This document shows, piece after piece, positions 27,001 to 51,000 of a stretch of DNA of 64,000 nucleotides. Position 1 is the first letter of the stretch. Each line of letters opens with the position of its first letter. A program made the position numbers and the translations under genes. The DNA lies in assembly GCA_903908245.1 (NCBI GenBank), contig CAIVRE010000008.1, positions 1,432 through 65,431 of the forward strand. The letters are read 5' to 3'. Origin of the DNA: Candidatus Omnitrophota bacterium. GTDB taxonomy: Bacteria; Omnitrophota; Gorgyraeia; Zapsychrales; Fredricksoniimonadaceae. The notes under the pieces were generated by a model that did not search any database, had not been told where the DNA came from, and worked only from the letters and a program-made list of their open reading frames with translations.

Positions 27001-30000
27001 ATAACCCGTGATATAACCGAACCGGCGATAATTCATGGCCGTAAGTGCGTCCTCGGCAACGTACGAATCCGTGATCCCTTCCGACCAACGCAGCGCCGAC
27101 ACGCGCTCAAAAAGCTTGCCGTAAGCCGCAAGCCCGCCGAAGAGCGTCTTGCCCCTCATCGCGTGATAATAGAACGCATTTTCCGAAGTCGGCAGGATAC
27201 TGCCCAGAGGCCCGACATCCTGGGTGATCGTGTGTTTAACGACCGGAGTCGAGGTGGCCAGGCCGGGATTATAGAAGAACTCGTTAATATGGGCTGCAAT
27301 GAACTGGCTGTCCACCATATTGGCGCGATGGTCCGCGTCGATATTCAGGACGACCGGGCCGATCAAATACGGCAGGACACATGTTTTCTGATTCCACTTG
27401 GCGCGATGATAGATCTCCTGCTTGTCGCTGAACTTCGGCAATGATGTCCCTTCCAAAAGCAGGCCGGGGAACACACGGTCATTGCGGATCAGGCCGAACA
27501 ACATGCGCAAGCCTTCAGTCTTTGCCAAAAGCTGGACGATCTCCGCCGCCGTAAGGCCTTTGATGACCTGGCCATTGGCATCCAGTTTGGCTGTATCCGC
27601 ATAATTGGTCTCAATAAGAACATCAACAACCTGCCGCAATTTACCATTAAGAGCATTGTTCAACGCCGCCAGCGTCCCGAGGTTGCGCTCGATGACGCGG
27701 ATCTTTGTATAAGCCGCGTTCTCCTCAACACCGAACTGACGGGCATAAGACTTCGCTATTCTCAAGAGCACGTCCTGATGCGAACGGGCATTATTGTAAC
27801 CGGTCGGCAATTGACGGTTAGCCCATTCCTTGATCTCGGGCCAAACAGGCCATTTCACAAGCCCGGCCGGCATATAGCGCGGATCCTTGACCATCTTGAG
27901 GATCTCCTTGCGCTTGGCCGCATCATTGACCAAACGATCGACCATCAACAGGAACGCTTCCGTCTTGTACTTGGCCAGCATACCCAGGCGATGCGTGAAC
28001 TGCTCTGTGCCATCAACCTGCTGGGTAACCGTAAGGCCCGCATCATCGAACCAGTAATCTTCCGTTGCGCCATTGATCAGCAGCGTCATCGGGATCAGGT
28101 CATCCCAGCTCATCGGTTCCAGGCCCTTATCCTGACGATAATTCCCGTTAATATATTCGATCAAGCGAACGATGCCGATACGGTCATCATTCCTGGCTTT
28201 AACCCCGTCCACCACGACCCGGCGAGCCATCTGGGCCACCAGCGCCTCGATCTCAACACGAAGAGCCTTCAGCGCAACTGCCCTGCCAACCCCCATCGCC
28301 TCGACCAGGCTGTCCAGACGAGCCGCGATCGGAGTTCCGATCGTCGACACATCTTTAGCGAAGAAGTTATACCCGTTATTGGCGACCATCTCGCGAATAA
28401 CCTCAACAAAGAACGCCAGGCGCTCCTGGCCACGGGTCGTATACTGCGTACCGATAGCCGGAGTTTCATCGCCAAACAGAGACATCAGGCGACTTACGAC
28501 CTTCCCCGGGCTCTTCTTATTGTTCAACTCGTAGACATTGTTGACCCAGTTGTACCCGAAGCTCGCCATCCCCATGAAAAGATAATTGAACGCATAGAAA
28601 CTCAGGCGCCATGTATCAAGGAAGATGAGGGCCGGTATGACCTGCAAACCGATCTGCAACCAGACCGGCACTGCAATGATCAATGTCGGCAAGCACAGCG
28701 ACCACGGGAAGACCACGGCCGTAATAAGCGCCAGCGCCTGTGCCGCGTAGAACCACATCAGGCGGGAGCGCAGCTTCTTGATGATCGCGGCCTTCTTGGC
28801 CTCAAGCGCCTTGACCACCTGCTCGTTATCCTTGTTCTTGTCGATCGCCTTCTCCAACGCTTTAATATGAGCCTCAAAAGATCTGGTCAAACGCACCTTG
28901 ATCAGGGCACCGAAAATAAGGCCCATCAACGATGCAAATGCTCCCATGATCATGCCCCACGGCATGGCCACAAAATTGGCCACGCCCACACCCTTGACAA
29001 TAAGCCCGGCCGCCGGGAACGCCAGCCAGATGAACAGGGCGCTGACCGTGCCGATCAACGTATAATGATAAACACGGCGCATCAGGTCGCGGGCCGTCTG
29101 GTTATACGCCCCGCCCTGGGAGAAGATGGCCCGGCGCCAGGACCGGCTACTCACAATGGTCCACAGCGCGATCGCATTGATCTTCCACATGGCCAGGCGT
29201 GTCTTGACCACCGGCATGCCGATCTCCTGATCGACCGCGTTGACGAACGCCAGCATGACCGGCTTGAACTCGCGCAAGAAATCCTTGATCGCTTCCTCAC
29301 GCTGGGCTTCAGGGACCGCCAGAAGGCCCTGCATCTGATCCAGCATCGCTTCCATGGTCTGGCGCAGCGGCGCAACTTTGGCCAATGTTTCGGCAGATAA
29401 AGTCCAGCCGGGCGTCTTGATGGTCGGATCCTTCTGGCCCAGGAGATAACGGAACGCATCGTTATAGATCTCTTCGGCAATGATCTCATGGAAGTTCACA
29501 ACTTTGCCCTTGGGATCGCGATTCAATTCCAGACGCTCCTGTGTCTCATTGTTGAGCAACACATGGAACACCTGCTTGAATATCTTGACCTTGTCCAGGA
29601 AGTTCGTGCCGGCAAAGGAGCCGTTGACCGTAAGCGCCGGATAAGCATATTTGGCCCAGAGATAATCCTCGGCGCGGCCCTGGCCGGCCAGCCCGAAGAG
29701 GGCGCGCTGGAAGATGACCTGCATCACAAAAAGTTTCTCGACCGAGACCAGGGCGTTACGGACCTGGCGTTCCATATCGGGCATCTTATGCAGGTCGTCC
29801 CAGGCGTAAACAACCATACCGCTTGTGACATCAAACGTATTAAAGCTGAAAAGCTCCGGCAGCTTGCGGGCATTAAAGATATTGGCGAAGAACGTCTGTT
29901 TGAGCGCCTGGATCTGGTCAGGGAACGCTTTATCGAACCCGGTATCCGTAATGACCTTGTCCGCCGCCGCCTCAACCCTGGCCTCAAAATCCTTATGCTT

Positions 30001-33000
30001 GACCATCTCGGCATACAACCGGACAAGAATGGCCTGCGCGGCACGGCGTTTGTCGAAAGTATTCACCAGGCTCTTCACATAACCGGAATTGAGCACCGCG
30101 CTGATCTTGTTCATGCTCATCAATGCCTGAAGCATCGACTCAAACGCATTCGCCGCATTCTGCTCGGAAGCCTCCACGCCGTACAGCGCCTTAAGCTCCG
30201 CCATGAACGCCGCGATATCCCCGGCCGCGGCAAGTCGGGCAAGATCCGCGCCATCAAAGGCATTACGGGCGATCGTATAGCGGAAATACTTCACGTTGCT
30301 CATCGCCGTGTTAAAACGCGCCCTGGTCATCCAGCGGCGGAAAAGATGGCCGGAAAGAATATTGAGCTGCTGCAGCCTGGCTCCGATACGAGCCTTAAGG
30401 TCCGCCTCATTCCTGTAAGCCCCTTTAAGCTGACGCTCCCGCACGATAAGCTGCGCCTGCGACAGGGTGAAGCCCATCGATTCGAACGTCTGGACGCCAT
30501 CCCCGTTCACATCGGTCCTGGAACGGTTGCGCAACTGATAGAACCGGTGGCCGGCGAACGGCAGGAAGAACCCGATCGTAAGCAGAAGAGCGATCATCCC
30601 GCCGACAAACCAGCGGGCCCCGATACCGGCCTGCTCGAGCGCGCTCATCCAGGTCGAACCTTCCTTGCCTTCATACGCCCCGACCGCCGGGTTCTCGGCG
30701 TTGATCTTGACCTCCTGGCCGTACTGCTCGACATTCGCGATAACATTGTTGTATTCACGGTCCACGACCTTCTGGCCGATCCACCCGAACGGGCCATTGC
30801 GGAACACATCTTCCATATCAAAGATCGATGAATACGGCGTCGTATTATGGCTGAAGCGCTCCGCGGTCCAGACGCGGCGGCCATTCTTGAGCAGCATCTG
30901 ATGGTCCTTGTTGACCCAATTGGCCGCGACCTCATAACCGCTATCCGTCGCCAGCTTTTCCGTGACCAGCTGCCAGACATTCCCCTGCTCGTCGGCCCAA
31001 ACCTTGTTGACCATGCCGCGATAGGCATATTCCTTGCCATCGACCATCCGGTTAACAAAGACCGGATAACCGTTCATGTAATAAACGCGCAGGGTCATGG
31101 CGCTGTATTCGCGATGTTCGTAATACAGCCCCGTCGTGAGGTTAAAACGCGTATCGACATTGCGGACCTTCTCGATCCCCTCACGGCTGCCCGTGTAGGT
31201 GACCATCGACGTGACCGGATCGAAATCCGTATAGGTGGTCTCGCGCAGGACATTACTGCTGCCCGCGACGGTAATAATGCCGGGAGCGATAACGATCTGG
31301 CCGCGGGACAAGTCGCCCATCCCTTTGCCCCAGAGCTTGTTGATGCTAACCTCACCGCTCATGCTCACGCGGGCGATATCACGGGTCAGCGGATCATTGG
31401 GGACCTGATAACGGCTGGCATAGGCCGCGGCTTCCGTATAGGTGCCGTTACGCCAGATCAACGGGATCTCACGCAGCTGCTGGATCCTGCTGTCCGCTGT
31501 CAGCCCGACCACCGCAAACTCGGCGACCTGGCCGTCCACGACTTCAGATAATGCCTTATAACCGTTCGAGTGCAGCCGATAGAGGCGGCCGAATGCCAGG
31601 TCCGTGTTCCCGGGCATCTGGATCATGTAACCATCGGTCGGCTTATCCGCGCTCCAGGCGGCGTTAAGGATCACATCCTGATTACTGCCCGGACGGAGCA
31701 CCGCGACAATAACACGGGCATTCACATCACCATGGATACGATAATTCACGGAGATCTGGCCATAACGGGTCTCAACGGCTTTATCGACAACGATCTTGTC
31801 CAGCGGCCTGCCGGCCAGCCCGAGCTCGCTGAGGATCGCCCTGTAACCCGTCTCAAAACCATTCTCGACAACAGTCCCGTCATCGCGCGTGACCATGTGG
31901 TCCTTGTTCACATAGCCGAGAATATTATCGCCGGCTGTCCCCCGGACCATATCCAAAACAGCCTTCAGGTTGGTCGTTTCAGTCGCAACACCGAGGACCT
32001 TCTCTCCGACAACAAAACTATTGCCCTTCAGTTCCGCGAGATAGGTGGCTCCAACATTCGCATTCGCGACATCCCTGATATAAACGCTATAACCATCGCC
32101 AGGCACACGTTCGATCTTGCCGATCTCCTCGTTCGTATTGCGGTCGACAATAAAGAACTTGTTGTTCGTGGCCGGATCAAGATCATCCTCTTCCGCGATG
32201 ACCACGTCATGGATATTGGCACCCACGATGGTATATTGCGTGCGGATCGCCTGGCCGATCACCGTTCCGAAATCGATCTGATAACCCGGATTAAGCTTGT
32301 AAATATTCCGTAACGGGGCTTCTTTATAACCAACAATGACCTTGCCGTCGACCGGAACGCCATTGGCAAGAACGGTCGGATAAACCTCAACATATTCCTT
32401 GCCCTGCTCCGCTTTATTCTCCGCGCTCTTGATAACGCCCATGACCCGGTCCAGGATGCCGTGCACGCGGCGTTCATAAAGCTGGACCGTACGGCCCTGC
32501 AGGACAGGATCCTCGATCAGCGCCCCGATCTTTTTCGTGTCCGCGGCATACGAACCGTCCAGCAAATAAGTAACCCGCCCGGAAGCGACATCCAGCACCG
32601 TAGCTTTGGCGCGATTCTCTGGAAGGAAGATCATTTCCACCACATCATCGTCGAACGACTTTTCTTCCAGGGTCGGGTCAACCGCCCTGCGGGCGTTATA
32701 ATCCAGCGCCTCCTGCGACGTCGCGATCCGGGAAAGTTCATAATATTTCGAGCGCACAAAGTCATAGGCGCGGGCATCCTTCCTTAAAAGATCAGCGCTC
32801 ACGAAGAACGGCGCTTCAGGAACATTCACCAGGAAGAGATCCTTCATGCCTTCCCCGCTGAGGAGCCGATATTCCATCTTGCCGGTATAAACATGGACCA
32901 GGCGGAAGAACTCGACCGTATTGTTATTCTCGTCAAGCCGCTGGATGCTCTGCACCTTCCCGGCCAATTCTTCGGCATTCGCCATGATCTGCGCCTCGCG

Positions 33001-36000
33001 CATCCACTGGGCAACCCCGTTATTGCCGACAACCAGGCGATAATCCCTCACGAGCTCCGCCATAGTCGTCGCCGTAATATCGATCGGGGCCACCAGCTGG
33101 TTGGCCTTGAGCGTAACCACCATCTGCAGGAACGGACGATACACAACTCCATCAACCCTGACGAACTTTTCCTTGCCCTGCGCCTGGATGACCGCTTCGC
33201 CCTCGTCGAACTTCCCGTTGCGGTTCTCATCCTGATAATAAGGATACCCGTTATTCCAGCGGACATGCTGGAGCGCGGCGCGGCCTTCCCTGATCTTGCC
33301 CAGGAGATAAGACGAATCCTGAATTTCAAATTCCGGCTGTGCTGTCCTGGAAACGATCACCGTCTTGAACGTTCCATCCGCCAGCTCTTCAAAAACCTCA
33401 AAACCATTCTTCAGGGCTTCGATCTCGGCATTGATCCGCACCACGCGCGCCTCGATGGCCTTCACGCCAGGCTCGAAAACCTTGACCACCCCGTTCTCGA
33501 CCAGGACCATCGTATCCGCGCCGAAAACCCTGCCATTGATCGCATACAGGTTGCTCTGGCCGATCTGCTGGGCGCCCTTGGTATAACGGGCCGGCATGAA
33601 CGCCTTCACATCATCCATGCTGCCCACCACGGTGGCTTCCTTGCCGACAACGATATGCCCGAACCCGTTGATCCCGTCAATGCGCGCCTGATGCTCAAGC
33701 TTCTTGTTGGCCACATCCACCTGCCAGGCATTAAGGGTCTTGACCGACGGCTGGAAAATGCCCGCGATATCGCCGCGGAAATTCAGCTTCACGAACCCGT
33801 CCTCGGAAAGGCCCAGCACCTTCGCCTGGGCCTGGACTTTCTCTCCCGCCCAGCGGACGACCACCAGGCCATCGGTATTATCCACCGCCCTCGGCAGGCC
33901 GGTATTGTAGAAGATCACGCCGCCGCGGTTCAGCCCGCTCAGCACGATATCCTTGACCGCGTCACTGCCTTCCATGGAATACTTCATCTGGTCGATGCCC
34001 TGGCGGATCTTCTGCACCAAAGCCGCATCGGTCAGGCCGGGACGGGTACGGAACCCGTCAAACTCGCGGGCATCGTCAACCACCGTACGGGTCATGCCGC
34101 CGAACGAAGCCCAGTTATACCAGGACCGGCGGAACTCGTCGGTCACATAATCAGTGAAAATATTCCCCTTGGCCGGAGCGCGGACCGCAGGCTCGATCAC
34201 AAGGGCTGCATTGGTCCGGCCAACAGCCTGCATGGCCCGGGCACGATCAGGGCCAAGGTCCTCAACGCGCACAGCCACCGTACCCGCGGCCGGATATTCC
34301 GACCGGCTCGCCGTATAAATATCAATGATCCGCGTTGAATGCGGGACCCACTCGCCATTACTGCCTTTTTCGTAAGGACCGCTGTCATCCTTGCGGAACA
34401 CGCCCATCAGGGCGCCCGTATCCTGACGATAGACCGCGACCCAATTCCCATTGGCCACGGGCAGGCGCTCATTTAACGCGGCGCTGACGCCCGCTTCCAG
34501 GCGGTTCTCACGATTGCCTGTCTTTGTGCTGTTCCCGCCTTCATCAGGAGAATAGAAGGACGCTTCGCCCATAAACGCCCGGCCATTAGAGATCTGCGCC
34601 GCCGGGCCATTCTCCTGGCGCAGCGAATCCGTTACCATCTCGACGATCTCGCCCGAAATAGGATGACGGACAACCTGCAGGATCTGGTGGCCCTGCCTGT
34701 CGTAACCATTGATGAACGCTTTCTCTTTAAGGAGGGCATTGGTCGAAAGGCGGGCCTTCATGACCATGGTATCAAAATTATCAACATTGAACTCGCCCTG
34801 CAGGAAGCCCCTGGTAATGAAGCCCGGGGAAGCGAACACGTGGCGGGCGATCAGCTTGCCATTCTCGATCTTGCAGATGATCCCGTGGATCGTCGCGCGG
34901 CGGGCATCGCCCTGGTCGTTCTGCTTCCAGCCATTGGTCGCCTTATCCAGGGAATAGAAATGCTTGTCGCTGGTATTCGGCTGATAGATCTCCAGATAAA
35001 CCGTGTTGCTATCGCCATTGACCGCGGCAAGATGGTTATAAACGAGCTGATACGGGCCATACGCCAGCTGATCTCCCAGGTTCTCGAAATTGAAATGCTT
35101 GTTCACATCGCCGAAAAGTTTCCACAGCGGCGTAAGCTGATGGCCGGTCAGGCGGTCCATCGCGCCGGGCAGGGCACGAACAGTATCGAGCGCGCCCAGG
35201 CTCATCACCGTAGCCTCACGCGCTTTATTGTCCTGGTCATGGAACTCAACATCGGTCCAGTTCCACACCAGGGTGTTGAAGATGCCCTGGACCGGATTCT
35301 TGTCCGTATGATAAAGCTTGGTCTGGCCGCGGCCCGCATGCGTAACAGCGTAGGAATAGATCTCGGCCGCATGATCCGCCAGGATGGCCGGCCCGGCGTA
35401 AGCGCTGAATCCGGTGCCAATACCATTCTGCATCAAACCGGTAACGATCTGATAATCGGTCGCGAACCGCTTGCCCGGATGATCGATATCCAGGATCAGG
35501 GTGTTCGGGCCTGTACCATTGATGGAAACCATCGGGAAGTTATAATTCATGACATAACTAATGGCGACCGGGAAATTGGCATTGACCGTGCTGACCCCCT
35601 CCAGGGCCTTGTTCTCCCGAAGCTTCTTGTCAATATTCTCCAGGCGCTCGGCTGTCGTCTTGCGGCCATCCTTCTCCTTTTGCGCCTTTTCCAGGTTTAC
35701 CAGCGCGCCATTTTTAGGATCGTTCAGGTTCTGGTCCAGGGAAGCCGCGCGGACATCCTGCTCTTGCTTGGCCTTCTCTAATTTGGCAACTTCATCCTGG
35801 ATCGCCGCAATACCCACCTGAGCCTGTGTCAACTGCCCTTCACGGCCTCCATTCTCACCAACCGGAGCAAGATTAGCCGCAAGCATCCCGACAAGCGTGT
35901 TGGTATTCGGCCCCTTAATATCATAATTAATGCGAATACCACGAAGTGAATGATCTTGGAAGAAGCTCTCTTTAAGCTTGTAGGTTGCCCAGACATGTTC

Positions 36001-39000
36001 CGCACGGAGCATATCATCACCTGCCAACGCCTGAGGATCGACCATCATGGCCAACTTACCACCAACCGTAGCCTCTTCCACCTGCTGACGGGTCTCTTCT
36101 GTAACATCTTCGGGCAACCCGACCATCATTCCCGTATTAGCAATGGTCACAACTTTATCGCTGGCATTGCGCGTAACATATACAACACGACGACTCGGCT
36201 CATTATCCTTAGATTTATATTCAATAACACTGCTGACCGTAACCACAATGCGATCTTGCTCAAAAGAAACCGGCGACTTAACAACATGACTGACACTTGC
36301 CGTAGTTGTTAAGCCTGAAACCGCTGTGGCGGAATTATTATCATTGGCCGAAGCAATACCAGCTCCGGCGAACAACACCACCGCAACGATAATGACAATG
36401 ACCGCCCTCCTGATCGGGGAGATGACGGCCGAAAGAGCGGCCAGGGCGATGCGAACAAAGTGCATCGGGGCGGGCACTAATGCCTTTTGACCCTGGCCAG
36501 TGACCATGGCGGAGATACCGCCAATGATCTGGGTGACGAACCCTAAATTTTTATTGTTGGGATTATTGGTATCAGATATACGGCCGGAGAGCTCCGCCGA
36601 CACACCTTCTCCGGTGATGTTCGTTCCCTTGGCGGAACAAACTCCCGGATGCTCGCTATTCTTGCCTGAAGCGTTTGAGGTAAGTCTATCTACAGGGCCC
36701 TGACCGACACTTTCCACACCCTTCACACCTGGCACACCCTGCGCGGAGTAGGCTCTGTTATCGTAACCAGTTCCCACACTTTCCACACCCTGGGCATTGC
36801 CGTAATCGCGAGGAGCCCTTGCTCTGTCCAGAGATCCGGCAGGCACACTCATCACGATCCTGGTGTTACTTCCTACACTCTCGGTATTCGCGCTGTCTTT
36901 ATTACCAGCGATCACACTCCGTGCATAGGTGGTGCCAACGATCACACTACGGGCACCCTTACTTTCATTGCTAGTCCGCGCGTTGCCATTACTGGCAGTC
37001 GCAGTTCCTTCATCAGCGGCAGCACCAGGCACACTTTGGGCATCCGTACTGGACACACCTGTGTCGGTACCCCTGTCAGAGCGGGTAATCCTGGCCGACG
37101 GACGAACCCCGCGGTTCAACTTCAGGGCGAGCCCATTGACCGCTCTTAACACTCTCTCCACCGCGGGCACAATACTGGCACCCTTGGCAAGACCAATGTT
37201 CAGAGCCCTTCTATTCAGAGCCTTACCGATCCCGGCCGCATACCCCAAGATGGCGGCAAACACCAGGACAACACCAGTACGACCCGCAGAACGATGCAAC
37301 GGTACTTCATCGACAGTAACCGCACCGATCACGGCACGGGTATTCGCTACCTTACTCGTATTCGCTACTGTACTACCATTGCCCTTGGCGTGATTGTCAG
37401 CATTCGAACGGTCAGCCAGGACATTAGCCCGCTCGTTGCCTTTACTGTTATTATTACCAGCCTTCACCAGCGCTTTAGCGCCATTCACTACACCCTTACG
37501 AACTGCATTCACAACACTACGAACTACCTTCACTGCATTGCTGCGAACTGCATTCACTGCATTAACAGTACGTACAACCTTACTTGTATTCGCTACTGTA
37601 CTACCATTGCCCTGCTCTTTGTTCTCAGCATCGGTGCCAGCGGTCAGAGCTAGCGCTACATCGACGCTCTTTTCAGCGTTGCGATCATTTAACTTCACCT
37701 CGGCAACCGGCCTGCCGTTGGCCTTAAGCACAACATTAACAGTATCACTACTATCTCTCTTGCCATTCTCGACCGCTCCGCCCCTGAGAGAGGGACTGCG
37801 GCCGGGCTTACGACCTCCATCGCCGGAACGAGACGCAAGTTCCGAATCGGACGGCCCTTTCAGCCGTCCGGCAAAATATCTGGCCCCAAGAACAGCCAAA
37901 GCAAGTACCACACCAAAGACGATCACAGGCAGAGCCCCGGCTCCACCAGCCGCGGCTCCGGCACCCGTTGCCGCTGAAGCCGTATTCGGCGTTAAGGTAA
38001 AGAGAAGCCCCATCAAGCCCATTCCACCTGCTATAGGCCCGGCGCCGGGCAATTGAGGCCCTTGAGGCACTACAGGCATCGCAGGCACAACCGGTGCTGG
38101 CGCAGGCCCTGGTGTCGGTGTAGGCCCGGGTGTTGGCGTTGGCGGTAACGATGTATTAGGAATTGTATTATTGCCTGTAGGCGGAGGCGGCGTATTGAGC
38201 GGATCCGCCTTGGCCGGAGCATCGCCTTCATCCTTAGGCTTCTGCTCATTAGCCTTCAACAAGTCAGGGATATTAACTTCCATCGTAGAATTAGCCGCGA
38301 CCTGTCCAGTCTGGACATTCCCGGCCCTGAACCGATTGATCGCCCTTCTAATGAATCCGGGTTTAGCCGGGGCAGTAGCTTTCTCGAGGCCACTCTGGAC
38401 ATAATAATCGTGTTCTGCCTGCTTTTGCTCGGCTGTTAAAGCCTCGGCCTGAGCAAGAACATCAGAGACAAACTGTTCATCCGCCTGGTACGGAGTGCCG
38501 CCCATAGAATCTGTTACGATCTGCAGGGCCTTACGGACAGTATCCTGATCAGGCTGTTTCTGATCCTCAGCCAGCAGGCCAAAGAACTCAGCCTGCCGGA
38601 CCATGATCGCGGTCAACTTCGGAATATCCCCGGCATTCTTTGTGCTATCCAGGCCAAGCAGACGGATACCAATGGGCTTGAGCAGGATCGGGGCCATCAG
38701 ATCAGCCGGGATCTCGATCTCAAAGGACCGGGCCGCCTGCACCCCGGGATATTCCTTAATATCAAAGGCCGGAACAGTGACCTTGCGGCCATCAACATCC
38801 GCCCTCACGTCGCCATTATCGCCCCTGGAGAAGGCCGCACGGACAGACTGACGGTCATCCCCTTTAAGGATAACGACCAGGCCGATCTCCTCACCCTGCT
38901 CCTGCGCAAAACGGATCAGAATATCGCCCTTGACCAGGCCCAGAGACGGCACATCTTCGGCAATACGCTGTTCCTGAAGGTATTTTTCGCTATCTTTAAC

Positions 39001-42000
39001 ATTCACCAAAAGCTGAACCTTGACCTGCTCTCCGCCAATAGTCTCGGTCTGAATATCACGCGCCGCTACACCATCCTTCACCTCAAGGCGTTCGGTCTTG
39101 TTCCTGCCATCGGTAACCGCGATACCCGTGACCGTACGGTCCTTCACCTCAAAGGCGCCATTAATATCCTTGGGCGCGGTAGCAGCAGGAGCATAGATCA
39201 GGCCGGTTTTGGTCTCATAGGTTTCGCCGGGCTGCAATGTAATGCCGTTATGCTCAACAGGCTTGTCAGCGGTATTATTAACAGCCTTGACCTCTTCTGT
39301 CCCGATCTGGCCGGACTTGTTAAGAATGGTCTGGACCGCCAAAGGCTTGCCCTTGGCCCCGTTGGCCTTCTGATAAGTGACCGCGAGCAGGCTGTCCGGC
39401 CTTGACCCGGCGAACTGCCCAGGCACACGGTCAGCCGGCGTGATCCGGTTGAACACTTTAACGAAATCTTTAAGGTTATCCGCGTGCATAAGATCCGCCG
39501 GGCCGGGCTCTTTCACATCGACCGCGCCAGGCTCGAACGCGAACACGTCAGCCAGAGGCACCGTTGCCGTCAGCTTTTTCGCGGCTTCCTCGGGCATATT
39601 CTTGTCGGCCAGCGCCGCCAGCACGATCGCCTGCATACCGCGCACCATCATGTCGATCGCATTCTGGTAATACTCGCGCATCCTGACAACGCCGCCATCC
39701 ATCACCAGATGATGCAGTTCATACATATCCAGGCTTAACTGATCGGCCTTCTGGCGCATCATTGTGCGGATATCGACAGGGATGGTCTCATCCGCCAGGA
39801 ACGGCTCGAAGACCCTCTTGCCGAACGCGATCAGGTCGTTGGAACGGGATGTCCCGGCGATCTCGCGGTCGAATTCCTGTTCATTGATATCGATCGTGCC
39901 TGCAATATATTTTCCAAAGCTCGTACCGGACGGAATATTGACCGCCAGGACAAATTTATCGATCGGCGTCTCCGTCAGCCGGCCACTCACCTTGACACCG
40001 CGGCTGCGGCCAAGCCCCTGGTCGATCTCGGTATGCGTTGACTTGGTGTCCGCCAGGACCACTAACACATCACCGCTCTTGGTATCGACCGTTTCACCAC
40101 GGATACGGCCCCTGGAAAGAACCACAAGATAACGGCGAGTCGTATCCGCCAGGATCCCGGCCAGAGCTTCAGGCGCGATCTTTGCGTAAGTCCCGTCAGG
40201 CAGGACAAAATAATCATCACCCTCGGGCTTCTCAAGGATCACGCCCATATTATTGCCCGCGGCAACTTCAGCCAGCCGGGCCAGATAAAGGTCTTCGGAA
40301 GAACCTGTTTCTCCAGGCTCGCGGGCCGCCAGCGGAATGACCACATTGCCCGAAGAACCCTTGACCAGTTCATCAAGCTTGCTCATTCCATCAGCTATAC
40401 TGCCGGTAAGGATCGTCCGGCCTTCATCCACAGGATTATCTTTATCCGTCCCGAACATCTTGCGCGACGGCGGCTCAATAGCGGTCAAAGGCTTGGCACC
40501 GTAGAACATGTTCTGTTCCCCGGCAATAAATTCCGTCAAACTACCCGACGCCAGGATGACCGGGCGCTTGGCCAGGGCGAACTGCCGGATGACTTCATCG
40601 CCCCGCACACGCTCACCCTCGATCTGATGCTCGATATCAGCCAAATTAAGCTGCGCGAGTTTGCGGCCTTGCTGTTCAGCGGCCTTGCGAAGCACAAGTG
40701 TTTGCGCCACGATCAGCCACGGGTCAGAGGTAACAACGCCGGGAGAGACCACGCCGTAAGAGTTCACCAGATAAACTTTTTTGCCATCCGCGCTAAGGGC
40801 GATCTCGCCTTCCTTATACATGGCCATGGCTTCCACCACCGCCTGCATATACGCAATGGCCTTGCGCCCGCCGTTCTTGGTGTCGCCACGGATCTCTTCG
40901 ATGGTCATGCCGCTAAAACGCTTGAGCAGAAGATCCTGGGCTTTCTGGCTGACAGCAATACGGATCTGATCCGGCGTGCGGGTCTGCACATCGGCGATCT
41001 GCTCGATCCCAAGCTCGTTGATCGCGGCCTCGATCCCCTGGATAATATCGCCATTAACCTTGCCATGCGCCTTGCCGGCGGTATTAAGGTCAGGATCGGA
41101 AGAAAGCTCGTCGTCATACAACGCGGACCTGGACATCAGCGCGTCCCACGCGGCTTTTGCCGGCGGATGATCCTTGGCCAGGCCGATCAGGGTCTGGATA
41201 TCTTTATTGTCGATCAGAAGGATGTGGTTCTCATCAATGGTCTTTTTAACCTGGTCAATATTCTTGCCATCCGGGCGAACACTGACCTGGGCCACACGTA
41301 AATTCGGGTCATACGCCCTGGCATATTCCGTAACCTCATTGAGGTTCTGGACCATCAACTTGGGCGAATGCAACCGCACCACCAGCTTGCCGTCAGGATC
41401 GTTCTTCCTGTGATCCGCGGCCATGGCAACCACCGCCACCGAGCTCTTACCGGCACCTGTACCGATCTTGGCGATCCAGACACCGGCCTGCTTGAGCGCC
41501 GCAGCGATCTTGCCACTGGCGAACAATTCATTGAAAAGAGTCTGCTCACCCTTGCGCAATACTTTCTTATTCGCGACCAGGACCTGCTCAAAGGAAGACT
41601 GCGCGGCATCAAAGCCGGGGAAGCTCAGCTGAACCGGCTTTTTGACTTCAGGCGCACTCGGCTGTTCCGACACGATCCGCATGGGCGGAGCCACCATCGG
41701 CGTAATCGCCGGAACAACAGGGACGACAGGAACAGCTGGCGGCATAACCCGAACGGGCGAAGGCAGCGGGACAGCCGGGACATTCCTCGGCGTCCTGACC
41801 GGAACAAAGCTGTTCACAACCCGCATGACACTGGCCTGTTGACTTAAAATAAAGGATCGGGACGATCCCGCGAATCTCCTGTTAAGGATGCCCTGGACAT
41901 ATCCCGAAAGGCTGTAAATATCTTTGGGAGCCTTGGCCATAGCCTCGCCAACGGTAAAGAGCGCAGGCTCAATATTGCTCCATTCAGAATTCTTGCGGGC

Positions 42001-45000
42001 CGCGAGGATCTTCCGGCCAAGGTCATTCGCTTCGGCAGCGGTCAATGCCGCGGCGTCAGCATCATTCTTGTCCGTATCATCAGACCGGGCCCAGGAAGGA
42101 AGATGCGGAGCGGTATCCGGATTGCCAGACAGGAAATTATAGAAGGCCTTCCACGAAGCCACCATGCTGCCCGCCATGACCAGCCCGGGATGTTTGCCCA
42201 CTGCCTCAGCGTCCCTGCTGGCAGGCTGAACGATCTCCACCGTTTTCTTTTCATCGGGACGAAGAGCCGCCAGCGACTTGAACAATAAGACGGAAGGCGC
42301 CTTGATAATATAATCGACAGCCTTCTTCACCGGCGAAGGAACGACCGGCACGGTAGCATTGGCCGGCGTAACGCGGGTGGACCACTCGGGGACATTGTAT
42401 TTCTTGAGCTTTTGCGCATCGATCGCGGCCGGAGCAGCTTTGACACTGCCGGTGTCTTCAAAGAAATTCTTACCCTGAGAGCCATCATTCAAAGGAACCT
42501 CGGCAACAACAGGCGCGGCTACCGGCGCAACGGCACCAACAACGGCTTTATGCTGCAGAGCGGCAGACTCGGCCTTGGCAACAGCTTTGGCATCATTCCA
42601 GGGATTCTGGGCGTTATAAGCCTCGGCCGTAACTTCGGGCCTGCCGCCTTCACGCAGATTCTTAAGGTTACGGATCTTGGCAAGAAGGGCCAGTTTCGCA
42701 TCGGTGCTAAGGGTACCGTTAAGCGTGCCGTCATGGAGCTCCTGACGCATTCTGTCAAGCGCCTTGACCTGGCCAACATGCGCTTCCACCTTCTTGGGTT
42801 CGGCGCGTTTAAAGTTCTTCGAATAGAGATCGTCGTAATTCGCATTGGTGGTCTTGATCCAGATCTCGCCCTTCTGGTCAATGTAAACCTTGAGCTGACG
42901 GCCTTCCCACATTCCAAGCCAGGCCTGGAACTTGGCCGTACGGGCCTCGATCGCCGCGGCATTACCGGCATTGGCCTTAATGAACACCCGGACTTCGACC
43001 AGCTGGCTATAGAGCGCATCATTAAGCTCGACCATCTTGAGCACGCGGCCAGAAGCGGCAAGTTCACCATTAACTCCGGCCCAGGCATCCGCAACCTCTT
43101 TCGGCCATTTGCCCGTGCCGAACTTGAAGTTGAGCGTATCCTCAATACCCTTGCGCTGAAGTTCAGCTTTATTCTTGCTATGCTTAAAGGCCTGGATCGC
43201 CTTAACGGCCACAGCCGAGGTAAGCTCGACAGGCTTGATCATCGCCTTCACATCCTGCGGGACAGCTTCAACAAAGATATTGCTTAAGAACCATGTCCAG
43301 AACCCGTCCGGGTTCCCCTTGTACTTCGTATTCAGCGCCCAATCGACCCAAGTGGTCTGACTCGCGTCCTGTTGAGAGCTGGATGAAACCTTGAAGCAGG
43401 AACCGACCTTCTCGGATGGATCGGCCTTATCGGCCTTACGGTCAAGCGCCGGTAAATTCAACTGCTCTATTCTAAATTTATTGATCTTCCAGTCAGGGAA
43501 CCTGGCAAGATGCGCAAGGACCTCAGGATCGGCCGTACCGCCATTAATAGCGCTGACCAGCGATGGCATCGAATAATGCTGCAAAAGAAGTTCAGGTACC
43601 GAGTACACCGGCGCCGGGCCCGGCACAGGACGGTTGATCTCCGGCTTGACGAACGGTGTTGCCCCCTCAATGACCGCGGCACGATCGGCTTCATTGGAAG
43701 GCGTCAATTCCGCTTTATCTTTCTCAACCTTGGCGGCCTGGATACCGGCAAGGCGCATCAGAATACGATTGAAACGCTCAATAACACGCTTGACCAGGTC
43801 ATCGGACGCAATAATATTGCTCTTAGATCCCAGGCGATCTCTTACCGCATCCGATTTAATAAGCGCTGCAACCAAAGGCTTTAATTCATCCGCCCCCTTG
43901 CCTTTAAACATTTCAAGATTGCGATCGATCATCTCCTGGGTAATGATCTTAACGTCTTTCTGATCAAATTCCGGAGCATCTTCGTCGTTGAGCGCCGCTA
44001 AAGTTTGCGGCGCAACAGGCGGCGTGATCACAGGTACCGCAGGAGCCTGAGCGACCACCGAAGTAACCGCCGGAATAACTGATGCCATGGGCTGATTAAC
44101 AACAGGTGTTGGTGTTGTCGTAACTGTAATAGATGAAGTAGATGTTGTGGGCAGAGCAACAGGAGCGGGTGCAGTGCTAGCTGGGCCAACCGGCGCCACT
44201 TGGTTAATATTAGATGTAGATGTTTTTCCTTGTACGATATCAAGCACATCTTGAACCTTCTTCGCAATGTCTGGAGGAGGACCAGCGCCAGCCAGTATCG
44301 GAGCGGAGGCCTTACTCTTCATTGCATCCTTATTATCTTTCACTTCAAGCCCCTGCCCCTGCGGAACAGTACCAGGAAGCTCCTGCTCAGCCGGAACCCC
44401 GAAATTCTTAAGCACACCCGATTGCATATTCTTCACTGTTGAATCGATCTGAGTTGCAATAAAATCGGTAAACGACTGCTCCTGCCCGCTCAAAGCTTTA
44501 ATATCGCCATCCTTGCCCAATGTGACTGAGCGCTTCGCAGCAACAGATGTATATGTGATCGTACCATCCGCATTATCTTTTCTTGTAAAAGCCTCATCCG
44601 CAAAAATTGCCGCCACATGACGATACAACGTAGCGCTATCAGCAACTTTTAACCTCTGCAAGTCAGTCGGCGTCAACGGATCGCTAAAAACAAGCTCCTG
44701 CCCGGGCTGAGTCGCCTTCTTGAGCAACGTCACACGTTCACCAACATACGGCTTGGCGAGGCCAAGGATCATCTGAACCACCGGTTTGTCACTCCACAGA
44801 TCGCCTTTCATGCGATCCTCAGACAAAGACGTCAACAGACTCGCCAAAGGAATGGACATCTCCAGTTGGCCGATCGTACCTGCCAGCATTGTCTTGAGAT
44901 TTTCCGTATATTTACCATCTGCCTGCTGCGGCATCATCAAAACCACCTGCGGATTCTCCTTCTCGCCCATCGGGAGGGTCACGGTAACCTGAACAGGACT

Positions 45001-48000
45001 TTTGCTGTCTGTCGCCGTCCCAATTTTTACAAGTGATCCGCTCTTATCAGAAACAAGCGCATCGTAAACTAACTTCAAGGCCGTCATATCCATACGGCCG
45101 ATATAAAGCGAACGATGCGCAACCTGATAACTGGCATCTCTTAAAGCCGTTTCGCGACCCGCGCCCATCCGGGAAGCACTTTCCAATTTGCCATCAAAAG
45201 AACCTGAATCGCCCACCAATTCACGCATATGAGCAAGCACCTCTTCAACCGCATTCTCAAGGAAATAAATACCGGTGAACATACTGCCTAACTTTTGACC
45301 GGGATCCTGCACACGGACCTGAGTATCAAACAATAATGAGCGTCCCTTGGTCAAACGGGTCAAACTATGGACATCCAATTCATGCGGGAGAACACCCGCC
45401 TCGAGGAACGTATGGGCGTACACTTCATTAAGGAAGACCTCAACACCCAAACGGATCGATGTATCATCTGCCAACGCCGCACTTGCCTTCTTGGTCAATT
45501 CCGGATCAATAATGATCTTTTTATGATTCTTGTGCTCATTCAACCGTTCAATGAACTGATAGCGTTTAAACTTCTGCACATCCGCCAGGGAAACATTCTC
45601 GCCGCCCTTGTTAGAAGCTTCAATTTTCGCTCTTAATCCGGCGTAATCAGCTTTTTCCTGATCATTCAAATCAACGATGCTTTCAACATCCAAAGAACCA
45701 TCTTTAAACTTGATACCACGATCCTTACCCAACAAATTCTCTCCGGCCGCGCGTATCATTGTTGTCAACTTCTCCCGGGCGGCTTCAAGCGGCATTTCCT
45801 GATCCATCTTGCCTTTTAAATTTTTATAAACTTTCTCAAGCATCCCCTCATCAGCACCACGAAGAGCCCCGAACCCGGCATTAATTTCCTGCTTGCGCCC
45901 AAGCAATTCTTTCTGCGCTGCCGATAACTCGGCAAGTTTCTCCCCTGCGGCCTTCCCGACCTTCTCCATATCCTGCATATCACTTGCTTCCAAAGAAAGG
46001 GTCGTCCGCAGCCAATCCAATTTCTTTTGATTTTCTTTAATGATCGCTTCAGCCGACTGCCCCGCTGCAATAAGTTTCGCCACTTTCTTCGTACTATCCA
46101 ATGAATCACTAATATCCTTTGCCATCTTTTCATACTGCGCCATCACCTGTTGATACGGATCGATCTTCCCAATAGCTGCCTTAAAAGCATCAAAATTAAT
46201 AAAGGCCTTCCGCTCTTCATTCTTAACAGAGAAGATCATGCCACGAGTATCAGAATCAAACCATCCAGTCATCTTTAACGCATTCCAGATCGAACGATCA
46301 AAATCTTTAGAAAACTCCTGCATCTGCAGAACGCCATCACGGCTTATCATCTGGGCCAAACGATTGACCTCATACATTTCCGAAGATACCAACGCCGGGC
46401 GGGTCTCTCCCGGAATATACATCAAATGACCAACAAGGCTGTTATCCACAAGATTACGAACGGCACCATCTTTGATATCGATCTTGTGTACCATTGGGTC
46501 AAACTTGAACGCGCCGGAAGCATTTTCAACGATCTTATGATACTCAAGGCCACTGCTTGTACTTAAGGTAGCAAAAGCCGCAGTATTATTTCCAGCGGAC
46601 GGATTAAAAAGAACATTATTCTGCACATTCCACACCATCCCGCGCGGAATGATCAAGCCGCCACCGAGCTGAATGTTCCCATTAAGGGCTTCATAATAAA
46701 CTGGCTCAAAATCCTGGATCTTGTAAACCGTTTTTCCGTCTTGATCCTGTTCAACAATATACCGCGGCGCATAACCGACACGGCGGGAATTCTGCCCCTC
46801 GGTCCTCGCCACGATCGGGCGCTGATCCAAAGCATTATTGATCGTCTTGCCCGTCCGCTCCAAATAAGCAGACAAAATCTCGTTCCTGGAGGCCTTTTCC
46901 ATCGTAGCCAAAGAACCTTCCACACGAGCACGCTGCACTCCTGAAGATACCTGGGCAACCGACACAACAGACTGCGTTAAAGCTTCCTGGGAATGCTGTG
47001 CAGCAATAGAACTGAATTCAGTCACAACTTGCTCAAAAGCCGTTTTGTACGCATCAGAACTCTTATAATCCCCACCCTTTGCTCTGATCGCATCTAATTG
47101 ACTGACCGCATCCTTCAGCATGGTTCTTTGCCCAGTGGTCAAATTAACATCCAATGCGCTAGCCACAAAGAAGTCCATTGTCCCAGGTGTACGCTCATCA
47201 ATAACTTGCGGCACCAATCCAATACGGGTCGGCTGTTGAACAATACCCGTACTATCAAGGACCGCTGTCCCAATAATATGCGCCAAACCGCGGACTTCCA
47301 CCGAGACGCCTTCAACAAAATCTCCCAGAAGAATGCGATGCGTCAAATTCACACGATCCGTCTCCCCATCCCTTTCTGCCTCTAAATAATTCGTTAACCC
47401 TGTTGAAACTTCCTCACCCTTCTCTGTCGTAAAATCCTTAACCCTCTCTTTACCAGATGCCAGCAATGTATCAAAGTTCCATTTAGTCCGGATCTCGTCA
47501 AATGCCACGCGAACTTTTCCGCCATCTTTTGCATTATAAATCTTATCCCAAAGAACATCTCTTTGTGCGCCTTTCTCCATCCATGCATCACGAATTTTCT
47601 TATCCCCAACCAATTTTACAACTTCATTCTTGATCGCATTCTGCAGCAACTCAGGATTCGTCTGAAGTAACTTATATACAGCATCACGGAATAAAGAATC
47701 ATGGCTGGAAACAAGGATCGTATTGGCACGTGCGTAAACCGGCTCAGTATTCAAAGGATCAAGAACCTTTGTTACCACATCATCACTAAACCACCTCTCC
47801 AAATATGTGATCGTATCTGCCTTTACTTTCTGTTCTAATTGTTCGCCGGATAATGATCCCTCAGCCTTGGCATTATTCCTATCTCTAACCCCCTGTTGAA
47901 ACTCATTGGCAATAGTTTTCACATCCCATTGACGCGCAATACCATACGCGATACGACCCACAATGTCCTGCGCCGCGCCGGAACGATCCTTGGCTGAACT

Positions 48001-51000
48001 GATAAAAAAGTTCGTTTTATCTTTATTAATCGAAATGTGCTTGGCAAATTCAACCGGATCAGAGAACCGGGCGATCTTAAAGCCCGACGCATGTAAAGTA
48101 TTATTAATATCCTTGGCTGTACCGGTCATACCAAGAACCTGGTCAAAGAAGTCAATGGCATTGGCTGCGCTCATTCGATCAGAAACGCTCCCCATGGCCT
48201 GCTGAAGAATAGAAGCCTCTTTATCAACCTTTATGCGCTGCGCATCCGGCATTTCCCACATCAAATGAGACAAGGCCATCAACGCACGCGCATTTAATCC
48301 CGTAGGATCACTAAAAATATTATTATCCATATATTTATCGCGCGACTTATCTTTGACCGCGTACTTTACAATTCCGGTGGCCTCATCAAAACTGACCCTA
48401 TATCGTTCACCGATCGTGCCGATCTGATCCAAAGACCAAGCCGCCTCATTAAGCAACTCCCGCAACTGAGATCTTGATAATGCACTCTCTACCCCGTCGA
48501 TCTTTGAAACTTTTTTCCATAATGCTTCAAATGCCTCTGGGGTAAACTGTTTTCGATCAGAAACCTCAGAACCGCCCGCTGTCTTATATGTTTCGATCTG
48601 ATCTTTAAGTTTTGAAGCGATGTCCTTTTCTCCAGGCTTGATCTCAAAATGGCTAGTAACAACTTCCCAAACCTTCCCTGCGATCTCGCCTCTCTGACTA
48701 TAACGCTCCAGCATGCCGGGCATCAAAGCAGACATGATCTCTTTATTGCTGCTTCCCTGGTCGGTAACACGCTCAGGAGCTAAATAAACCCGGTGGAACT
48801 CATCCATCACCGCGGTCACGCCCTCAAAATAATTTGCCGCCGACCCGTTCCTCGACGCATGAACCGCATAATCCTGCACATCAAGAAGTTTAAGGACCCT
48901 GACCTCCCCATCCTTGAATGCCTCAACCTCAACCTTATCACCAGACCGGGTTGCTTCGCGAAACAACCCGCCAAACTTCTTATTCATTGCACCCATTACC
49001 TCATGACTATCAACATTGGCCCAAGCCTTATAAAGGTCATCACTGGTAGCGACCAGGGCTACTTTCTTTCCCGTAGCGGCCAACACCCCGGCCATGGCCA
49101 CAGCAATAGTCGATTTACCACCACCAACGAACTGGTCCCACATCATACGACCGCTCTTACCGAATGCCGTCTGAAAGAATCCATAAATAGCCGCCGCTTG
49201 TTCTTCACGAATATCGAATCTCTTCCCATTAGAGGTCCTCACATCTTTAAGAATACCCAAAACCATCTTTGTCGCGACTTCCGCACGTTCATTAATATCT
49301 TTAATATCATTGAGTTTTTTTATGTCTGCACGCGTTCTCGGAATAGTCAACACTTCAGCGATCGTTGAACTCTGATCAGCAATTGAGTCTTTATTAATTT
49401 TTAACAACCTGTTCAGATCCTGCGCGATCTTCCTCCCTGAAGAGAAAATATCGCTCGAAAACGTCTTAATATCGCTTTCAAGATCTTTATCTGAACCAGG
49501 ATTCTTCCGCCCCTGTTCTGCCTTTACTGCCGCCGTCCTACGACTCGACTCAAAATCCGCCCCATAGAACGGCAATTTCCCGCCTAAGGCATTGCTTTCA
49601 CGTAAAGCGCGTGTCCAGGGAGATGAGCCCATCCCGGGATCATTACGAAGAGCTTTAGCACTATCAGATATGGCTGTTGGTTTAGAAGAGGATTTATCAA
49701 TGGAAACTTCGGCGGGAGAACCTTTCCCAGTCGGAGGTGCTTGAGGCTTAAGAGCTGTCTCAAGCTTGAGCATTGCCTGACGAACATTATTGAATTGCGC
49801 ATCAGAGCCAAGGGAACCAGCCAATTCACGCAATCCCCCAACCAGGTCTGTTGCAGGAGCACTTAAGCCCTTCTTGCCGTTGATCATTTCCGTTGCCTTC
49901 GCTAAAAATTCCCCAAGGCCGGAACGAATACCAATATCATCCCCATTCAATTTTCCCTGCTCTATAGAAACAGCCTCACGCATGGCATCAAACGCTTGCG
50001 CAAATGTCGCACGATCACCTAAAGATTCATACGCCCGAAGCTCCAAAAGCTTCGCTTCCAGCATATTGACAAGCTTTGGCTGATCCTTGCTTTCGCCTTG
50101 CTTATTATTCTGAACTTTCAGGATAGTCTGAACCTGTTCTGCTGCCTTACCAAAATCCCCGCTTCTCTGCAAGGCCTGAACATAGTCCATGCGTAATCCG
50201 ATATCACTAAAACCATTAATACCTTTATTGCCCTTATCACTTAGATCATTGCGGTTTTCCTTCGCGGCTAACGCATCCAATTTAACCGCCTTCTCAAGCA
50301 GCTTAACCGCTTTATTGATCTTCCCGCCTTCAAGCGCCTCGACCCCCTGCTGCCGCACCTGCGCCGCTTCCAACATAGTACGCAACGTCTTAATATCCGT
50401 CTTTAAATTCTCCAGGCTTTCCGCACCATTATCCGCATCTTTCACCCTGGACGATTCTTTAGCAAGAAAAGATTCCAATGACTTGATAACAGAAGCTACC
50501 TCTGCGAAATCTGCGGAAGCGTCCAGCCTCTCGGTTCCCCGCTCACTGATCCGGGTAAGCCTGACAGCCGCGATATTCTTTAAAAGATCCGAATTATTCG
50601 GATTCATTACCTTCGCCAATTCCAAAAGATCAACAGCCCTGGTCGTCTGCTGCGACTGCGCCGAAGCCCGTGCATTCTCTAATAAATGATTGTACCCATT
50701 CTCTCCAAGAACAAGTTCTCTCATGGATGCCAGAACAAAACGAGTCTCCTTCGGTGCGCGATCGTATAAATTATCCACAATATCAAGCATGGATCTCGCA
50801 TGCCCCACTTGAGCTTTTACCGACTCAGCGAATTTATCCATGTCGAAAGACACCGTGCCCTTATCATCAGCCTTATACTCCGTTGCCAGAACAGTCTTGG
50901 ATGCTATATCATTAACCCATGCCTTCCGTGCCTGCGCTACTTCTGCTGCAATAGTCTTCCTGGCACCAACCGAAACGCCTCCCTGCTGATCTAATAAATG

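Follow-up and report, generated by a model that had tools for sequence, protein, structure and literature searches.

What does a second P-loop ATPase module do deep inside one of the giant genes of Candidatus Omnitrophota, and is it a copy of the first? The question is raised by a 64,000-nucleotide (nt) stretch of contig CAIVRE010000008.1 (GenBank assembly GCA_903908245.1, positions 1,432 to 65,431 of the forward strand), called the window below, which encodes two such modules on its minus strand. Their P-loop motifs lie 2,556 amino acids (aa) apart, in line with the spacing of about 2,500 aa given in the initial annotation, which regarded them as paralogues. The downstream one, module 2, is by its conserved motifs and modelled structure a divergent SecA-like ATPase of superfamily 2 (SF2; DEAD/ResIII-type), with a predicted fold closest to that of SecA. 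The best explanation, which we consider reasonably probable, is that module 2 is a SecA-like motor tethered in the giant protein, with protein translocation as its most likely role. Such a motor would hydrolyse ATP while tethered within the giant protein, helping segments of that polypeptide, or else partner proteins, to cross the membrane or enter it.

On the minus strand, a single reading frame of 21,333 codons (nt 1-63999) runs through the whole window without a stop and is open at either end, a feature that the initial annotation did not note. Against its 0 stops stand 259-1,332 in each of the remaining frames; Pfam domains and homologues fall within it, and the 35 plus-strand open reading frames (ORFs, up to 783 codons) are its antisense shadows. 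The window lies wholly inside one giant gene (>21,333 codons) like those reported from Candidatus Omnitrophota. Proteins of this kind were recognized by an ORF of tens of thousands of codons, numerous transmembrane segments, homology to Omnitrophota giant ORFs, and adjoining type II/tad-like secretion and PilZ genes; of these, ORF size, numerous transmembrane-like segments (by hydropathy) and homology to Omnitrophota giant ORFs were found here. Amino acid i of the giant frame corresponds to nt 64000-3i to 64002-3i.

The closest comparison for module 2 is provided by a Candidatus Omnitrophota metagenome-assembled genome (MAG), REEB252 (locus L002), in which the whole 20.4-kb fetched stretch is one ORF. 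BLASTP aligned the two giant ORFs at 38.8% identity (E=4.6e-166), covering aa 7443-8391 only, and the flanks of module 2 could not be aligned to L002 by BLASTP. Beyond this, a tile-by-tile phmmer comparison with L002 gave no more than weak anchors, collinear in both proteins, in module 1 and at aa 6148-6264, and nothing downstream of aa 8263. By these comparisons, module 2 is a strongly constrained island and by far the best-conserved part of a fast-diverging protein. With homologues reaching that E-value and with conserved motifs, it is more than a chance P-loop. Motif conservation was read from ten aligned relatives, 22-39% identical overall except for one of them, a 131-aa fragment at 53%; each motif is covered by 6-9 of the ten aligned sequences, and the counts refer to covering relatives only. 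The frame, module 2 and its motifs are as follows.

1..63999, minus strand: giant gene frame, with 0 stops and with Pfam domains and homologues in frame.
38827..41673, minus strand: module 2, the conserved island at aa 7443-8391, comprising RecA1, insert, RecA2 and a helical tail (from homology and Foldseek).
41443..41463, minus strand: motif I (Walker A), GTGAGKS, aa 7513-7519; GKS in 7/7 covering relatives.
41104..41121, minus strand: LYDDEL, aa 7627-7632, the probable motif II (Walker B), where the predicted strand SALYD ends (from the alignment and the AlphaFold (AF2) model).
40615..41061, minus strand: insert of ~150 aa between motifs II and III, aa 7647-7795 (from the alignment and its position in the model).
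40540..40548, minus strand: motif III, SGS, aa 7818-7820, in VILASGSLTEF; SG[ST] in 8/9 relatives, TGS in relative P0004.
40090..40113, minus strand: motif V-like RGRIRGET, aa 7963-7970; first Arg in 7/7, G-E in 6/7 (R..GE).
39997..40020, minus strand: motif VI, QGLGRSRG, aa 7994-8001, with candidate arginine fingers; Q and RxRG in 6/6 covering relatives.

Both peptides quoted in the initial annotation, IAKIGTGAGKSSVAVVAMAADHRKN with the GTGAGKS motif and DQGLGRSRGVKVSGR with QGLGRSRG, are present in the minus-strand frame, and the latter had been rightly called SF2 motif VI. The family pattern around Walker A is [TV]G[AST]GKS, with a QN motif Ia also kept, and the Pfam DEAD match to module 2 starts at this Walker A. 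Motif II is probably LYDDEL; the family pattern is [LF][YH]xxE, and the glutamate, present in 8/8 covering relatives, is the part of Walker B whose conservation was borne out. The core of the insert, TIEELRG...IAYMQA.VEA...GV..D, is the most conserved stretch of the family. Of the features that define SF2, motif I, motif III and the motif VI arginines were all found. Because the P-loop lysine, the motif II glutamate, SG[ST] and the Q...RxRG arginines are conserved, module 2 is most likely an active ATPase, and its pattern of conservation is typical of a working active site.

Domain, profile and structure searches were employed to place module 2 within SF2. The only Pfam families that match it are DEAD (PF00270) and ResIII (PF04851). 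On DEAD, the window copy scores 22.6 bits (E=9.5e-5; range 22.6-24.5 bits, gathering score 26), while the L002 orthologue scores 25.1 bits, or 28.0 bits with its insert spliced out. Both modules match helicase-type RecA domain 1 models of Pfam, at or just below threshold, in agreement with the earlier call of two P-loop SF2-type ATPases. Module 2 gave no match to Pfam SecA_DEAD (PF07517) even at E<=10, its insert none to SecA_PP_bind, and the scans none to SecA_SW. A helicase C-terminal Pfam domain was likewise not matched in module 2, the SecA signature sequences (GMTGTA, RIDNQLRGRSGRQG) do not appear in it, and NCBIfam returned nothing meaningful. When PDB sequences were searched, phmmer with either module, or with sub-segments of module 1, returned noise only, and the module 2 profile found only weak helicase P-loop matches.

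An AlphaFold prediction from the single module 2 sequence was uninformative, with a predicted local distance difference test (pLDDT) score of 36.7. When an alignment of 8 sequences was supplied, AF2 gave a pLDDT of 68.5 and a pTM of 0.50, and the strand/helix alternation in both halves of the model points to two tandem RecA-like domains, followed by helices with pLDDT 33-58. Foldseek against the PDB returned 236 chains at E<=0.001, and the best 50 of the 236 are all SF2 proteins. Ranks 1-10 are SecA or SecA2 (B. subtilis, M. tuberculosis and C. difficile), with E-values of 1e-12 to 6.6e-9, and further SecA chains, including those of T. thermophilus and E. coli, stand below rank 10. After SecA come DinG/XPD, DEAD-box and RIG-I-like helicases, with E-values of 7e-9 to 1e-5.

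A SecA profile was built from 11 sequences, namely E. coli SecA and ten diverse plasmid-borne SecA/SecA2 genes and SecA-like homologues; a word-indexed search with E. coli SecA had given only proteins at least 90% identical, unsuitable for a profile. Using hhalign, the module 2 family gave a single 311-column alignment to this profile (P=6.5e-4), which runs from Walker A across the insert and reaches nucleotide-binding domain (NBD) 2. Module 2 resembles SecA/SecA2 (PDB 1tf2, 4uaq, 1nl3 and 6t4h), its best structural matches, in its two RecA-like domains, in a domain between motifs II and III, where SecA has its preprotein-crosslinking domain (PPXD), and in the same order of Walker A, motif III and motif VI arginines. 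Unlike free SecA, a protein of ~900 aa, it is embedded in a protein of >21,000 aa. The structural alignments reach only 11-13% sequence identity, a C-terminal zinc site was not identified in module 2, and the GMTGTA of SecA is kept in module 1 only.

Module 1 is a faster-evolving SF2 or SecA-like module, with the following features.

47080..49299, minus strand: module 1, aa 4901-5640 (from Pfam, the SecA profile and the L002 orthologue).
49108-49125, minus strand: Walker A, GGGKST, in VGGGKST, aa 4959-4964.
48793-48804, minus strand: motif II, a clean DEFH.
48115-48132, minus strand: GMTGTA.
47266-47280, minus strand: HIIGT.

An insert of ~185 aa separates DEFH from GMTGTA. With this insert removed, module 1 matches ResIII end to end at 25.4 bits (E=1.5e-5), above the gathering score of 22.5. 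On SecA_DEAD it scores 17.9-19.5 bits, below the gathering score of 24.6, and reaches the 19.5 bits (E=6e-4) without the insert. When a hidden Markov model (HMM) of the 11 SecA sequences was run over tiles of all the giant proteins, module 1 was the only match (full-sequence E=2.6e-4), aligned as two collinear segments, one at Walker A and the other at motif III; its GMTGTA region also beats shuffles when compared with E. coli SecA (z=3.6). The orthologue in L002 lies at aa 20-800, with three collinear matches (E=3e-6, 0.004 and 0.056), only ~25% identity and a position 3,050 aa upstream of the module 2 of L002. Module 1 is much less conserved on these figures, and looks partly degenerate. The pair is, by sequence comparison, old and ordered, because L002 carries both orthologues in the same order. 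For an upstream P-loop in P0001, DTGGGKT, homology to module 1 could not be shown, so the two-module architecture is demonstrated only in the window and L002. Between the modules lies a third short conserved anchor (aa 6148-6264, window 45210-45558). It recurs in collinear position in two Omnitrophota relatives, L002 (E=3e-6) and P0001/L003 (E=8e-4), and matches no Pfam family.

The surroundings of module 2 were surveyed by Pfam and by Kyte-Doolittle hydropathy, with transmembrane-like peaks counted at >=1.8. The features are listed here, all on the minus strand.

41680..41790: linker rich in Pro, Val and Ala, aa 7404-7440, bordering module 2 on its N-terminal side (from reading of the sequence).
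36349..37938: first strong transmembrane-like helices, aa 8688-8706, 8910-8928 and 9199-9217 (Kyte-Doolittle 19-residue means 2.0-2.8).
aa 13593-13714: Metallophos (Pfam).
aa 15815-16221: GDE_C, glycogen-debranching (Pfam, E=1.9e-81).
aa 16271-16463: alpha-amylase (Pfam).
aa 17306-17688: PEP-utilising mobile and PEP-binding domains (Pfam, E=1.7e-29).
aa 18671-18828: HATPase_c (Pfam).
aa ~20408-20464: GNAT (Pfam).
C-terminal part of the giant frame: DUF1152 and DUF218 (Pfam).

There is no strong transmembrane-like segment within aa 1-8687 by Kyte-Doolittle hydropathy; the first three helices lie 300-800 aa beyond the C-terminal edge of the module 2 island, with at least 17 more between them and aa 21032. 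Peaks of >=1.8 number about 19 between aa 8688 and 21032. Module 2 thus sits in a long N-terminal part free of such segments, which is presumably cytoplasmic. In the ~12,000 aa downstream of module 2, transmembrane-like helices alternate with enzyme domains. The metabolic-type enzyme domains fused in the giant protein and interleaved with these helices span window ~2600-23230 (aa ~13590-20470); no dockerin, TSP3 or C39 domains were found within the window. The linker next to module 2 gives a weak hydropathy peak and contains no transmembrane helix. Similar Pro/Val/Ala-rich low-complexity linkers lie at aa 6641-6659 and 7152-7170 (an example is VPAVPLPSPVRVMPPAVPVVPVVPAITPMVAPPM), and such linkers look like domain separators, one of which directly adjoins the module 2 island.

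Relatives of module 2 are few. An exhaustive HMMER search of 1.84 billion representative proteins gave nine matches, of which seven are real, several of them fragments of very long proteins (5,479, 5,689 and 7,820 aa). A word-indexed protein search returned nothing for module 2 or for its alignment, though the exhaustive search finds homologues. Using a pattern scan with the conserved core (alignment A2), three loci were identified in GTDB genomes: L002; L003 (E=8e-37 to the window protein), in Candidatus Omnitrophota MAG nDJH6bin28, which is the same protein as P0001; and L004, in a MAG labelled Planctomycetales. In the Omnitrophota MAGs, the relatives belong to ORFs that extend over all of the sequence fetched. 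Scans with single proteins turned up no relatives in GTDB genomes, IMG/VR or JGI metagenomes, the alignment A2 scan of JGI metagenomes found none, and a phage collection gave no match. One relative, P0006 (locus L005; GCA_050250375.1, JBFWOS010000003.1), is a complete gene of 7,820 aa with a module 2 homologue and an N-terminal C39 peptidase; it is preceded by two T2SSF genes and followed immediately by another giant gene, of 17,588 aa.

Several points weigh against the reading of module 2 as a SecA-like translocation motor. Sequence searches of Pfam, NCBIfam and the PDB all fail to identify module 2 as SecA, and the window copy falls just under the Pfam DEAD gathering score. The Foldseek TM-scores are low (~0.3) and the confidence of the model is medium. 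Taken domain by domain, the hhalign match reaches significance in the first half of NBD1 alone; the insert against PPXD (P=0.046) and NBD2 (P=0.083) do not. The hhalign alignment pairs ILLIDNKD (aa 7593-7600), and not LYDDEL, with the VDEVD of SecA, and the Walker B aspartate before the glutamate, the part of that motif for which conservation failed, is found only in the window and L002, with Gly or Ser in six other relatives. The scaffold, two-helix finger and wing domain of SecA were not identified in module 2. The transmembrane helices are called from hydropathy only, and the translocation role is drawn from resemblance and context. When the module 2 motifs (II, III, V and VI) were aligned by eye with E. 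coli SecA, the result was no better than shuffles (z -0.7 to -0.2); it counts against the reading as well, and was not used as evidence.

The alternatives differ in what they make of this evidence. In the initial annotation, the Walker A region of module 2 was a near-repeat of that of module 1, and the pair arose by internal duplication of one ATPase cassette in this gene. Such an origin would agree with the SF2 character of both modules, with the large insert that each has between motifs II and III, with their similar P-loop surroundings (GxGKS[ST][VI]AV.AMA) and with the module 1 to module 2 order kept in L002. Compared by hhalign, the two families align over 45 columns around the P-loop with P=0.012, and at motif III with P=0.34, a similarity that is confined to the P-loop and hardly extends beyond the generic GxxGK[ST]. 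BLASTP of 1,000 aa around each module gave a best E of 3.1, self-BLASTP of all 21,333 aa found no internal repeat at E<=0.01, and the module 2 family HMM misses module 1 (score -3.4). Against the SecA profile, module 1 gave P=0.004 and 0.016, and by these values each module appears somewhat closer to SecA than to the other; for this reason any common origin would be ancient, at the level of the SecA/SF2 family. Both modules, moreover, already have separate and very different orthologues in L002 (39% identical in module 2), so that any duplication would far predate the split between the window and L002. Judged from sequence, modules 1 and 2 are neither near-repeats nor recent duplicates; near-repeat duplication is largely refuted as a recent event, and we regard it as highly unlikely to account for the pair. 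A third copy of either module in the window was rejected by HMM search. A loss of catalysis in one module or in both, leaving only a structural or nucleotide-sensing scaffold, is quite unlikely, and more plausible for module 1 than for module 2. The L002 orthologue of module 1 has no DE at the aligned motif II, module 1 of the window has no motif V and VI arginines as aligned to SecA (GDFVEGVSV, QQPTRIG), and the low identity to its orthologue fits such a decay, as would the loss of the module 2 Walker B aspartate in 6/8 relatives. The P-loop lysine, motif II glutamate, SG[ST] and RxRG of module 2 are kept across very divergent relatives, and no other part of the protein is nearly as conserved as this module, which argues against a dead module 2.

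Module 2 could also be a nucleic-acid helicase or translocase (DEAD-box, DinG/XPD-like or ResIII-like), for example one that remodels the gene's own >64-kb mRNA, which we consider unlikely. Among Pfam families, module 2 and its relatives match DEAD and ResIII only, the module carries motifs I, III, V and VI, and probably II, of generic SF2 helicases (DEAD PF00270, ResIII PF04851), and DinG, XPD, DEAD-box and RIG-I-like proteins are also among the Foldseek matches, with DinG/XPD as the next-best folds. XPD and DinG, too, carry an insert between motifs II and III. Against this stand the ten top Foldseek ranks of SecA/SecA2, whose E-values are 3-4 orders of magnitude better, so that the best fold matches are SecA and not helicases. 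Module 2 contains no Cys and cannot hold the iron-sulfur (Fe-S) cluster of XPD/DinG; an Fe-S helicase of this type was rejected, as neither module has a Cys. Pfam and NCBIfam scans found no nucleic-acid-binding domain nearby, the protein around it has the features of a membrane protein, and the name given to such domains in published giant genes is SecA_DEAD. A more specific form of the translocation reading takes a conserved, ordered pair of very different SecA-derived motors in giant proteins of this lineage, together with the anchor at aa 6148-6264, as a cis-acting export machine that threads its own transmembrane-rich enzyme part through the membrane. The motors would be made before the transmembrane-rich, enzyme-bearing part of the same polypeptide, which they would then thread, and the protein would be self-translocating, independent of or loosely coupled to the housekeeping SecA; module 1 would be the fast-evolving, partly degenerate member and module 2 the strongly constrained one. 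This self-export view is offered tentatively and is rather unlikely.

The reading of module 2 as a tethered SecA-like motor has a published setting. Giant Omnitrophota genes with divergent SecA_DEAD domains, termed 'Archaeovorin' and of a dockerin type, have been described; their SecA DEAD domains lack scaffold and wing, and self-export of the giant protein was the task suggested for them (West-Roberts et al., 2023, bioRxiv 10.1101/2023.11.21.568195). Many transmembrane regions, C39 peptidases and adjacent type II-like secretion genes are reported for such genes in this and a later preprint (bioRxiv 10.1101/2023.11.21.568195; bioRxiv 10.64898/2026.06.07.730766), the latter of which also contains a 20-protein PF07517 architecture cluster among long Omnitrophota proteins. 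The window protein resembles those of West-Roberts et al. in being a giant single ORF with many transmembrane-like segments and an embedded, fast-evolving SecA-like DEAD motor, in having its closest relatives in Omnitrophota MAGs, and in the type II secretion system genes beside the giant gene of one relative. It differs in that module 2 misses Pfam SecA_DEAD and SecA_PP_bind and module 1 is below the SecA_DEAD threshold, in its set of enzymes (GDE_C, alpha-amylase, PEP-utilising, Metallophos and GNAT, with no dockerin, TSP3 or C39 in the window), and in carrying two very different modules ~2,550 aa apart, which the available text of that preprint was not found to state.

SecA-like genes of unusual setting or annotation were also seen outside Omnitrophota. 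The 13.8-kb Legionella geestiana plasmid NZ_CP041715.1 (locus L017, record 453-9296) consists mostly of one hypothetical gene of ~2,947 aa, which holds a SecA-like domain 25% identical to E. coli SecA, that is, a SecA motor in a very large protein. The Pseudomonas amygdali megaplasmid pMPPla107 (locus L013, record 954703-957249) encodes a SecA homologue annotated only as 'DEAD/DEAH box helicase', whose motor domains share 42.5% identity with those of E. coli SecA.

SecA-like DEAD domains in giant Omnitrophota genes have been described already, and the window copy is, by its predicted relationship, a new and unusually divergent example that standard Pfam thresholds miss. A modest novelty is that two very different modules form a conserved pair of fixed order, in which module 2 is the island; this was not found stated in the available parts of bioRxiv 10.1101/2023.11.21.568195 or 10.64898/2026.06.07.730766. 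Because standard domain searches miss the window copy, SecA-like domains in giant genes have probably been undercounted. Module 2, the one strongly conserved island and ~950 aa long, bears on how a cell could produce, fold and place in its membrane a protein of >20,000 residues, and would be a concrete and expressible target for testing the self-export idea put forward in the published text.

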